The position numbers and the translations under genes are program-made. Source: an uncultured Akkermansia sp. (lineage in GTDB: Bacteria; Verrucomicrobiota; Kiritimatiellia; RFP12; JAAYNR01). From it: 64,000 bases of DNA. Below are positions 42,638 through 43,099 of the stretch, in pieces (the stretch's first letter is position 1; each line of letters opens with the position of its first letter). A model generated the notes under the pieces. The model was not told the DNA's origin. It saw only the letters and a list, made by a program, of their open reading frames with translations, and made no database searches. Location of the stretch: positions 20-64,019 of the forward strand of contig CAZDLY010000008.1 in NCBI GenBank assembly GCA_964506575.1, written 5' to 3'.

Positions 42638-42952
42638 TTACTTGTCTTTCTTCTCTTCCTTCGGCGGCTGAACGGCTTCGGCCTTCAGCTTGATAATGAG
42701 CGCCGGCGGCTGCGGCGGTTTCTTAGCTTCGGTTCGCGCCTGGGCCGTGACCGGACAGCAGCAACATGGATCAGTCGTCTCCGCCGAAGAAATGGTACGG
42801 GGCGGTGCCGGAGGCGGTTGCCGCTCCTTGGGAGGCGGCACAAAACCGGGCTCGTCAGAGCCATCACCACCTGCCAAGACGGTTCCCATGCACAGAGTGG
42901 TGGCAAGAAAAGCCACTCCCGCCGTCACCACCGTATGAGCTTCTTTTTTCAT
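42638..42952 (-). CDS. small (104 aa) N-terminally anchored/exported Pro-rich protein with CCCC motif
   Basis: An AAGGGAG RBS lies 7 nt before the ATG. The sequence is MKKEAHTVVTAGVAFLATTLCMGTVLAGG...PPPKERQPPPAPP...TTDPCCCCPVTAQ...KPPQPP...KEEKKDK. A near-consensus promoter lies about 110 nt upstream. Confidence 0.65.
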   Translation of the reverse strand: MKKEAHTVVTAGVAFLATTLCMGTVLAGGDGSDEPGFVPPPKERQPPPAPPRTISSAETTDPCCCCPVTAQARTEAKKPPQPPALIIKLKAEAVQPPKEEKKDK

Positions 42953-43069
42953 AAATACTCCCTTCCTCAGAGCGCCGAGTTCTTCGGCTATTTGCGGCTG
43001 CCTGACCTCGCCCGTACAGCACACTGCCGAACTGAAGCAGCGACGGTACATCCTAACTTACTGGCTCTC

Positions 43070-43099
43070 ATTATACGGGGGGGATGTGAAAAGGGTCAA
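43070..43099 (-). promoter_or_regulatory. near-consensus sigma70 promoter (TTGACC-18-TATAAT) with upstream T-rich UP-like tract
   Basis: The minus strand reads TTTTCTTTTTTTGGGC-TTGACC-cttttcacatcccccccg-TATAAT. The -35 is at 43094-43099 and the -10 at 43070-43075. It drives the small Cys-rich ORF and probably the downstream operon. Confidence 0.65.

Follow-up and report, generated by a model that had tools for sequence, protein, structure and literature searches.

Locus and small gene family

The window, by which we mean the whole stretch of 64,000 nucleotides analysed from contig CAZDLY010000008.1 of an uncultured member of the Kiritimatiellia, carries on its minus strand a supercluster of ~15 genes, from 45387 down to 22879. 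Its first half consists of p265, YcaO, a small open reading frame (ORF) that is the main subject here (hereafter small), DUF4159, p234, DUF58, BatA_N-VWA and a GATase1-like transmembrane (TM) protein. The second half consists of p215, p1199, p778, p240, FHA-MoxR, a SagB-family dehydrogenase and an OYE + 4Fe-4S + FAD flavoenzyme. An initial annotation had proposed small, with its four consecutive cysteines (Cys4), either as a substrate of the neighbouring YcaO or as a membrane-anchored first component of a Bat-like operon. We followed both proposals by computation; all positions are in Table 1.

The small protein contains the segments VVTAGVAFLATTLCMGTVLAGG and PPPKERQPPPAPP, a TTDPCCCCPVT core, KPPQPP and a Lys/Glu tail, all as quoted in the initial annotation. 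A search of 5.8 billion protein clusters gave 99 homologous clusters of 80–150 aa, none with a Pfam domain, and a scan of one genome per GTDB species gave 190 homologous loci. The gene occurs in Kiritimatiellia, Lentisphaerota/Victivallales, Verrucomicrobiota (Chthoniobacterales, Terrimicrobiaceae, others) and one Omnitrophota metagenome-assembled genome (MAG). The family is compact, because just 38 clusters were found at E<1e-10 in a profile search of 1.84 billion representative proteins. Small had no match in Pfam, NCBIfam, PHROGs or PADLOC, and no paper on the family was found.

The invariant blocks of the alignment are GDGSDEPGFVPPP, PPAPPR, SAET and R-T-E-A-K-K-P-P-x-P-P-x-L-I-x-K-L-K, and the Lys/Glu tail is variable. 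TEAKKPPQPP is the most conserved motif of the protein. The initial annotation had made the reality of the ORF depend on conservation and purifying selection in relatives. From its homologues, its invariant motifs and the synonymous change at the CCCC codons (see below), small is to be regarded as a genuine, translated and selected gene.

Small and the DUF4159 protein

Natural fusions link small to the gene that follows it. The module, with CCCC, is joined in frame to a full DUF4159 protein in three bacterial or metagenomic loci (L058, 508 aa; L095, 511 aa; L134). Among the representative clusters of ~500-aa DUF4159 proteins, at least seven begin with a Cys-free module (P0235, P0249, P0256, P0268, P0269, P0283, P0285). 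Residues 16–95 of the window small protein align to residues 15–94 of the L058 fusion with 64% identity, and residues 24–436 of the window DUF4159 protein to its residues 95–508 with 60% identity. The two window proteins therefore tile the fusion end to end.

The fold search for DUF4159 returned 4i66 and class-I glutamine amidotransferase folds, in two homologous repeats. When its N-half was aligned to its C-half with hhalign (probability 100%, E 8e-47), TLFTKLT fell on SIAQIIY. The PPxPP-(T)L(F/I)TKL segment is thereby equated with beta-strand 1 of the DUF4159 repeat, by reference to the second repeat. In an AlphaFold2 (AF2) model of the Cys-free fusion P0235, DSSP assigned a strand (E87–93) to the same segment. 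In this model the core residues 49–84 had a predicted local distance difference test (pLDDT) score below 50, and the GDGSDE-PGFV motif was moderately confident. The GDGSDEPGFVPPP motif, which is also present in anti-sigma-DUF4159 paralogues, reached a pLDDT of about 70–75 in the fused model. Modelled alone, the window small protein gave only an N-terminal helix (residues 2–21) and no fold, with a predicted template modelling score (pTM) of 0.20. The mature window DUF4159 protein begins DWNATPNDV, immediately past the missing first strand.

Given the natural fusions, the profile alignment and the AF2 models, small is very probably the split-off N-terminal module of the DUF4159 protein, made up of a signal/anchor helix, a disordered Pro-rich stalk and beta-strand 1. 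The earlier proposal of a membrane-anchored first component of a Bat-like operon was essentially right, and is sharpened here to a detached DUF4159 module. The exported LIIKLK strand would insert in trans into DUF4159, whose own first strand is missing. Such an insertion would tether DUF4159 to the stalk/anchor within a MoxR-AAA+/VWA envelope machine.

By direct homology, the closest known relatives are full-length DUF4159 proteins (~500 aa, two repeats) opening MoxR-DUF58-BatA operons, for example in L093. They share with small the position as first operon gene, the signal peptide, (GDGSDE)PGFV-PP, PPxPP, GE(S/T), a Pro-rich core, R(S/T)EKKxPPxPP and the beta-1 strand. Small differs from them in standing apart as a gene that has a promoter and a signal peptide to itself, and in a CCCC core where they have PLPLP/PYPPPP. 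In the literature we found DUF4159 only in the Pfam paper (release note). The domain now gains a defined, predicted anatomy, with two GATase1-like repeats behind a conserved disordered stalk, and the split genes amount to a natural split-protein experiment.

Promoter and start of small

The promoter 5' of small matches the sigma-70 consensus at 11 of 12 positions. In 100 shuffles of the upstream 200 nt this score was never reached, and the whole window, which is G+C-rich, has three sites of at least 11/12 where first-order Markov simulations predict 0.125, so a chance origin of the small-gene site is unlikely. The promoter, the T-rich tract, the AAGGGAG and the 104-codon ORF described in the initial annotation were all read at their positions. 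Its further statement that this is the best promoter match in the window gives way to a three-way tie at 11/12. The two other sites, at 6808–6780 (minus strand, TTGACA-17-TACAAT) and 58857–58886 (plus strand, TTGACA-18-TATGAT), are probably real promoters as well, given the expected number.

Among ~10 close Kiritimatiellia relatives, T(A/T)GACA-17-TAnnnT is conserved 30–60 nt 5' of the ATG, often with an extended -10 TG, independently of YcaO being upstream. The conservation is confined to these relatives; 5' of small in Verrucomicrobiae and most other clades no match to the sigma-70 consensus was found. The window site thus combines both hexamers, a spacer within 16–18 nt, a score beyond chance and, in close Kiritimatiellia relatives, a conserved position. 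Since the promoter is kept in relatives with or without an upstream YcaO, the comparison supports a real promoter driving a transcript of small, DUF4159 and following genes, separate from p265-YcaO and with a predicted start.

The 5' untranslated region (UTR) is longer than that of the relatives (about 30–60 nt) and aligns poorly with theirs. An Rfam scan of 42400–43400 recognized no family, the sole match being a sub-threshold Cyano-2, and folding of the 5' UTR gave z = 0.36 against shuffles, that is, no structure beyond chance. A 137-aa reading from an ATG at 43051 was rejected: this ATG lacks a ribosome binding site (RBS) and comes only ~12 nt behind the predicted transcript start, and in close Kiritimatiellia relatives the protein begins MK(K/S)E. 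The start codon of DUF4159 follows the stop of small after 46 nt, with an RBS and without a terminator in the gap. A terminator-like hairpin, GGCTCTGACGAGCC plus a T-rich run, was seen at 42849–42862 (minus strand). It lies within the codons of the invariant GSDEPGFV motif and is probably a chance by-product of conserved coding sequence.

N-terminus and location

The small protein starts with positive charges, continues with about 20 hydrophobic residues and has a possible VLA/G cleavage site. Its A..TLC.GT.LA segment has a mean pairwise identity of 37%, versus 21% for the adjacent DUF4159 signal peptide in the same genomes. This extra conservation hints at a role beyond targeting, such as a retained anchor or a recognition element. 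In Cys-poor lineages there are paralogues that have, in place of the N-terminal segment, the TM helix of an anti-sigma factor of the extracytoplasmic function (ECF) type. Some carry the module alone (L073 6704–7270, P0251, P0252), others continue into the DUF4159 domain (L068, L076, L082, L083), and they adjoin an ECF sigma gene. Because the module follows the TM helix in the anti-sigma paralogues, we infer that the stalk lies outside the cytoplasm; small itself would be exported, and possibly cleaved, through its Sec-type signal.

The cysteine core

CCCC is maintained in 67 distinct genes, from Kiritimatiellia to Chthoniobacterales, by 13 different combinations of TGC and TGT codons. Its persistence through 13 synonymous versions shows directly that the four cysteines are under purifying selection. 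Other lineages have at this position IAGGCC (two Cys), IPGGCTT (one Cys), or IGSSG, LGGGG and ISGGAP (no Cys), and phage and fused forms have IPYPPPP or PLPLP. On the explanation favoured below, the ancestral segment was PLPLP/PYPPPP, and the Cys4 patch took its place in particular lineages. The initial annotation had called for a comparison of the core with its flanks, and here the substrate idea fares less well: the flanks (GDGSDEPGFVPPP, PPAPPR, SAET, TEAKKPPxPP) are invariant, whereas CCCC gives way in some lineages to GGCC, GGC, GSSG, PYPPPP or PLPLP.

Two loci had tandem small paralogues side by side, a Cys-rich one (CCCC or CCSCC) and a Cys-poor one (GGC/GGCC): L099 281–839 and L150 9593–10237.

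Gene cluster

The 15 window proteins were mapped with phmmer on ~170 loci, with flanks of up to 10 kb, and adjacency was counted on those 60 Cys-rich loci whose flanks reach 3 kb or more in both directions. Small is almost always part of one supercluster, whose blocks are reshuffled between lineages. Its direct neighbours were DUF4159 in 42/60, p778 in 35/60 and YcaO in 18/60 of the well-flanked loci, MoxR-FHA was within 10 kb in 42/60, and six of the 60 were orphans. The operon genes from p234 to p778 co-occur in >100 loci.

Table 1 Features of the small gene and of the surrounding cluster in the window. Positions count from the first letter of the window.
Feature	Position	Strand	Remarks
p265 promoter-like site	45427-45400	minus	10/12 match (promoter scan)
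p265	44590-45387	minus	exported, unknown function; signal-like N-terminus; phmmer locus map
YcaO, 428 aa	43235-44521	minus	PF02624 1e-48; stand-alone, cytoplasmic
T-rich tract TTTTCTTTTTTT	43101-43120	minus	directly 5' of -35; read from sequence; possible UP-like element
sigma-70-type promoter	43070-43099	minus	-35 TTGACC 43099-43094, 18-nt spacer, -10 TATAAT 43075-43070
predicted 5' UTR, ~111 nt	42953-43063	minus	contains RBS AAGGGAG at 42964-42958
small ORF, 104 aa	42638-42952	minus	ATG at 42952, stop 42640-42638; unnamed protein family
signal peptide or anchor, residues 1-28 (MKKEAHT + VVTAGVAFLATTLCMGTVLAG)	42869-42952	minus	Sec-type; possible cleavage VLA/G
linear motif GDGSDEPGFVPPP, residues 29-41	42830-42868	minus	invariant columns G29 G31 E34 G36 F37 V38 P41
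CCCC, residues 63-66 (TGT TGC TGC TGT)	42755-42766	minus	in predicted disordered region
residues 74-90, TEAKKPPQPP + ALIIKLK	42683-42733	minus	invariant E75 K77 P79 P80 P82 P83 K88
DUF4159 protein, 436 aa	41281-42591	minus	PF13709 1e-65 in two stretches; own signal peptide; two GATase1-like repeats
p234	40572-41276	minus	operon member
DUF58	39591-40544	minus	Pfam
BatA_N + VWA	37386-39584	minus	Pfam
GATase1-like TM protein	35188-37389	minus	operon member
p215	34490-35137	minus	operon member
p1199	30888-34487	minus	operon member
p778	28555-30891	minus	operon member
p240	27815-28558	minus	cluster member
FHA-MoxR AAA+	26387-27793	minus	Pfam
SagB-family dehydrogenase	25416-26375	minus	signal-like N-terminus; TIGR03605
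OYE + 4Fe-4S + FAD/NAD(P) flavoenzyme	22879-25419	minus	Pfam

With DUF4159, DUF58 and BatA-VWA, small is co-directional and closely spaced, MoxR lies in the same cluster, and the arrangement is conserved across genomes. Small is the first cistron of this DUF4159/DUF58/BatA-VWA operon, read from its own sigma-70-type promoter. Signal-like N-termini were recognized on most of the cluster proteins of unknown function and on the SagB-like protein, and none on YcaO, DUF58, MoxR and the flavoenzyme. The presumed MoxR/VWA envelope machine extends across the Planctomycetes-Verrucomicrobia-Chlamydiae (PVC) phyla sampled (Kiritimatiellia, Lentisphaerota, Verrucomicrobiota). PADLOC gave no match on ten cluster proteins, so a known defence system is unsupported.

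Widespread as they are, Bat/MoxR-VWA operons have awaited a mechanism since 1999. The Bat-MoxR-VWA operons of Bacteroides, Leptospira and Borrelia share with the window the MoxR AAA+, DUF58 and a BatA protein with an N-terminal double TM and a VWA domain. Unlike the window, the Bat operons in the papers found are without YcaO, SagB, flavoenzyme or a small Cys4 protein. Compared with ordinary MoxR-DUF58-BatA operons, the one in the window has gained YcaO, SagB, the OYE/Fe-S flavoenzyme, FHA-MoxR and several exported proteins of unknown function. What is known is thus an operon kind whose function is experimentally undefined (PMC3557215, PMC5700661, PMC11834572); what is new is the split Cys4 stalk gene and the embedded YcaO/SagB/flavoenzyme module. 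No paper connecting YcaO with MoxR was found, and nothing relevant on YcaO in Verrucomicrobia.

Linkage of YcaO, SagB and flavoenzyme to small

Orthologues of the window YcaO were restricted to the supercluster in every context read. The protein passes only the generic TIGR00702 model; among solved structures, E. coli YcaO (4q84) and MJ1094 (6pe3), the McrA-type enzyme of M. jannaschii, come closest. On the McrA and S12 equivalog models it is far below the cut-offs (85.7 vs 700 and 72.7 vs 365). The SagB-family dehydrogenase scored 125.1 bits on TIGR03605 (cut-off 78.4), and its nearest solved structures include the azoline oxidases McbC and cyanobactin oxidase 5lq4. It has a signal-peptide-like N-terminus (MIPCQKRSRVGSGDGPFTLMALVLLLLLTALPLTSRA, followed by DP) without a twin-arginine motif, as has its orthologue in L005. 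A signal on this FMN enzyme is odd, if a cytoplasmic YcaO is its expected partner.

The initial annotation had tied the substrate idea to the co-occurrence of YcaO orthologues with small. In the contexts read, with flanks of up to 10 kb, co-occurrence was found, more strongly than expected and in several independent gene orders. YcaO is directly 5' of small in the 18 adjacent loci counted above, in some with an overlap of 6 nt, and the adjacency recurs in at least five gene orders. The orders read were: (i) p265-YcaO-small-DUF4159, the window type; (ii) MoxR-SagB-OxFMN-YcaO-small, with DUF4159 not nearby (L005, L010, L021, others); (iii) SagB-OxFMN-YcaO-small-p778, sometimes with the 6-nt overlap (L022, L025); (iv) small-SagB-OxFMN-YcaO (L028); (v) small-OxFMN-YcaO (L045); (vi) small-TPR-p853-SagB-OxFMN-YcaO (L179); and (vii) small-YcaO-B12rSAM-DUF4159, in all eight two-Cys loci long enough to show it.

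In three CCCC-type clusters whose YcaO is not adjacent, the SagB-OxFMN-YcaO trio was located at another place in the cluster or MAG. In L090, a Victivallales contig shared with L072, a p215-p1199-SagB-OxFMN-YcaO run ends in the trio. In L091 the trio belongs to the same Verrucomicrobia MAG as L062, and in L146 it is convergent with MoxR and directly after it. The trio was found in every CCCC cluster that could be followed, and orphans without YcaO within 10 kb exist. Near the Cys-free forms L086/L087, L092 and L093 no YcaO was found within reach, in a small sample of four contexts with flanks of ≤10 kb. An exact-match scan of metagenome contigs to extend the Cys-free L086 downstream found nothing.

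The enzymes differ where the core has fewer cysteines. One-Cys (IPGGCTTP) loci have, together with small, a TfuA-YcaO fusion (722–760 aa), a YcaO orthologue and a B12-binding radical-SAM protein (~627 aa). These loci are L068 (133–7255), L073 (36–6707), L153 and L177, and no SagB was seen in the four. Most of them also encode an ECF sigma factor and an anti-sigma factor with a copy of the stalk module as its outer part. The two-Cys (IAGGCC) loci are L082, L083, L106, L109, L111, L112, L113 and L133; an anti-sigma-DUF4159 fusion precedes small in most of them, and an ECF sigma gene is upstream in four. Some close Kiritimatiellia relatives of the window (L004 4869–6767, L007, L023, L015) have a B12-binding radical-SAM protein of 632 aa 5' of p265-YcaO-small; no homologue of it was found within the 64-kb window.

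The Cys4 patch as a possible target of YcaO

In the mechanism that we consider, the Cys4 patch would be the site of action of the cytoplasmic YcaO, together with the SagB-family dehydrogenase and the Fe-S flavoenzyme. ATP-dependent backbone activation would yield thiazol(in)es or thioamides before Sec export. That YcaO modifies the Cys4 patch is a hypothesis made plausible by the gene neighbourhoods, with comparative support that is unusually rich, and we put it forward with reserve. The explanation as a whole, a split DUF4159 module whose Cys4 patch is the YcaO target, is the best we can offer and is held tentatively. The substrate idea of the initial annotation is therefore upheld in part: co-occurrence and adjacency of YcaO and the SagB in the cluster speak for it, and a core that varies between invariant flanks speaks against it.

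Several points weigh against this explanation. The core is less conserved than the flanks, and the cysteines are absent in some members. The window YcaO scores 50.7 bits on the SagD azoline-forming model TIGR03604, for which the cut-off is 219.25. A classical cytoplasmic YcaO-SagB complex is unlikely, with a signal-like N-terminus on SagB and none on YcaO. In Verrucomicrobiae and some Victivallales, small and YcaO are ~20 kb apart, at opposite cluster ends. Among the cluster proteins, Pfam and NCBIfam revealed no E1-like, Ocin-ThiF or RiPP recognition element (RRE) partner, where RiPP stands for ribosomally synthesized and post-translationally modified peptide, nor a leader peptidase or ABC exporter. 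CCCC/CCSCC orphans are present on low-GC contigs, one clearly archaeal, with YcaO not within 10 kb. For the donated strand, the pLDDT in the P0235 model is only about 60–70, and complementation in trans is deduced from fused homologues. The support as a whole is drawn from gene neighbourhoods and models.

YcaO enzymes that act on functional proteins, as proposed here, are exemplified by the McrA thioglycine system (YcaO-TfuA plus radical-SAM methylations) and by E. coli YcaO-RimO on S12. A further likeness is the pairing of YcaO with radical-SAM enzymes in the one- and two-Cys lineages and with TfuA in the one-Cys lineages. Unlike in these systems, YcaO would here act on an envelope protein bound for export. 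For Cys-modified, Sec-exported products there are the bufferins and oxazolins/HvfA, RiPPs or proteins made by MNIO (DUF692) enzymes (PMC12452194, PMC11252979). In these, a signal peptide stands in for the leader and is possibly part of the recognition element, and the cysteines acquire their modification while still in the cytoplasm; long proteins and fusion proteins are among the substrates, and the product is active in the periplasm (PMC12452194, PMC11252979). They are a precedent for the Sec signal, which the initial annotation had found atypical for a precursor. The window differs from bufferins and oxazolins in that the enzyme is a YcaO and not an MNIO, there is no DUF2063 partner, and the modification is only proposed.

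One PVC clade has put a Cys4 patch into the stalk, and the same clade has added the YcaO/SagB/flavoenzyme trio to the operon. The locus offers, in small, a candidate open to direct test for YcaO substrates of a new class, in which a structural protein destined for export takes the place of a natural-product precursor. If true, no earlier YcaO substrate would have carried a Sec signal, and YcaO chemistry would be linked with Bat/MoxR for the first time. A real modification would extend YcaO biology beyond RiPPs, McrA and S12 and give a chemical handle on Bat-like systems.

Alternative explanations

Small may have the same structural role with an unmodified Cys4, serving as extracytoplasmic thiols, as a metal site (Cu(I), Zn, Fe-S) or as a redox/disulfide switch. 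The substrate of YcaO, SagB and the flavoenzyme would in that case be something else, either a different target within the cluster or a small molecule. This alternative is doubtful and still a serious one. It is consistent with the extracytoplasmic stalk, and the signal-like N-terminus of the SagB-like protein makes redox chemistry outside the cytoplasm conceivable. It also accommodates the CCCC/CCSCC orphans and the distance of YcaO from small in Verrucomicrobiae and some Victivallales. It fits the old idea that Bat systems handle oxidative stress, for which a link to aerotolerance is reported, with the mechanism undemonstrated (PMC3557215). Three features of the cluster fit less well: small is its only short, Cys-rich, disordered polypeptide; the adjacency of small and YcaO arose repeatedly and independently, overlapping genes included, which shared cluster membership by itself explains poorly; and the enzyme set varies with the Cys content, SagB going with CCCC, and B12-radical-SAM and some TfuA-YcaO with one or two cysteines. 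To our knowledge, moreover, all characterized YcaO enzymes act on peptide or protein backbones, which also counts against unmodified cysteines. If there is no modification, Cys4 would still amount to conserved extracytoplasmic thiols, clustered in a system for which a redox function has long been suspected.

A second alternative is that small gives rise to a free RiPP: a linear azol(in)e peptide would be cleaved from its leader, secreted and released. This is very improbable, in spite of a Cys run beside YcaO, a SagB-family dehydrogenase in the cluster, the order precursor-first, enzymes-next in L028 and the two-Cys loci, and one archaeal orphan adjoining a Peptidase_C39 gene. Many lineages have the module joined to a structural protein of ~500 aa, in which the C-terminus of the module forms a beta-strand. 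Invariant flanks around a variable core are the reverse of usual RiPP precursors. No immunity gene was found among the cluster genes in Pfam and NCBIfam, nor the leader peptidase, ABC exporter or RRE partner mentioned above, and small is embedded in a ~15-gene MoxR/VWA system conserved across phyla.

The nearest RiPPs of this kind would be the linear azol(in)e-containing peptides or thiazole/oxazole-modified microcins (LAP/TOMM), such as streptolysin S (SagA) and microcin B17 (McbA). SagA has CCCCC. The window shares with them a contiguous Cys run and, in one cluster, a YcaO (D) and a SagB-family FMN dehydrogenase (B). It differs in having no C/F (E1-like/RRE) partner, peptidase or exporter, a YcaO below the SagD cut-off and a SagB-like protein with a signal peptide. 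Unlike LAP/TOMM precursors, small is a structural module with the Cys run in mid-protein, both flanks invariant and a Sec-type signal. Of the defining LAP/TOMM features, the SagB dehydrogenase is present; the precursor architecture, a SagD-type YcaO with its partner, and peptidase, exporter and immunity genes are not. The locus fails several defining TOMM/LAP tests and is not to be classed as one.

It is just as improbable that small is a lipid-anchored tether, with Cys21 (ATLC/MGT) acylated as in a lipoprotein or with the Cys4 patch S-acylated. Cys21 is nearly invariant among the bacterial members, and ordinary signal peptides are less conserved than this N-terminal region. The small N-terminus does not match the lipobox [LVI][ASTVI][GAS]C, A-T-L-C having Leu at -1; a canonical VLA/G signal-peptidase-I site lies downstream, and phage and anti-sigma versions are without Cys21. 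The lipoprotein reading was discarded for the lipobox mismatch.

A chance open frame, untranslated in a promoter-bearing intergenic region, would be favoured by nothing beyond small size and low-complexity composition, and its negligible probability reflects hundreds of homologues, amino-acid conservation under synonymous change, a conserved RBS/start and natural fusions, by which the comparative data refute it.

Phage and archaeal copies

Five phage contigs encoded a Cys-free copy of 135–155 aa (L001 2469–2915; L088 10001–10459; L089 4554–5012; L097 5902–6354; L098 4266–4733). They were recognized as phages by a terminase large subunit and a portal protein (PHROGs), and two of the contigs are from IMG/VR. 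The phage copy combines a signal peptide and the stalk module (core IPYPPPP) with a DUF4159 repeat cut short after its first ~45 residues (beta1-alpha1-beta2). By its sequence it resembles a truncated mimic of host small plus the DUF4159 N-terminus, and might serve as a decoy or in attachment.

CCCC/CCSCC orphans with no other cluster gene within 10 kb and a G + C content of 30–37% were L174 (9947–10231), L016, L024, L033, L074, L075 and L136. All were binned as Woesearchaeota or other archaea, except L136 and L174, which are metagenome contigs without a taxon label. In L174, a 175-kb contig, the neighbours of the gene are SRP54 and the archaeal ribosomal proteins L44e and S3Ae, and the Peptidase_C39 gene is ~60 nt downstream on the opposite strand. 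These contexts suggest a cross-domain transfer of small into probable DPANN archaea.

A joint reading of the locus and its copies would have a YcaO-centred set (SagB and the Fe-S flavoenzyme here; B12-radical-SAM and some TfuA-YcaO in sister lineages) rewrite the Cys patch of a Sec-exported MoxR/VWA subunit that donates a beta-strand to DUF4159. The phage and archaeal copies would be decoys or hooks for the strand-deficient DUF4159 of the host. In its entirety this reading is unlikely.

Base composition of the cluster

The cluster has a G + C content of 54–58% (window 26000–45400), and its flanks 62–69%. The boundary is near 45.4 kb and adjoins a high-GC malic-enzyme-like gene at 45545–46849 (plus strand). 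The loci of the relatives have 38–50% G + C. The contrast may come from horizontal acquisition from lower-GC Kiritimatiellia, or from a compositional bias of exported proteins.

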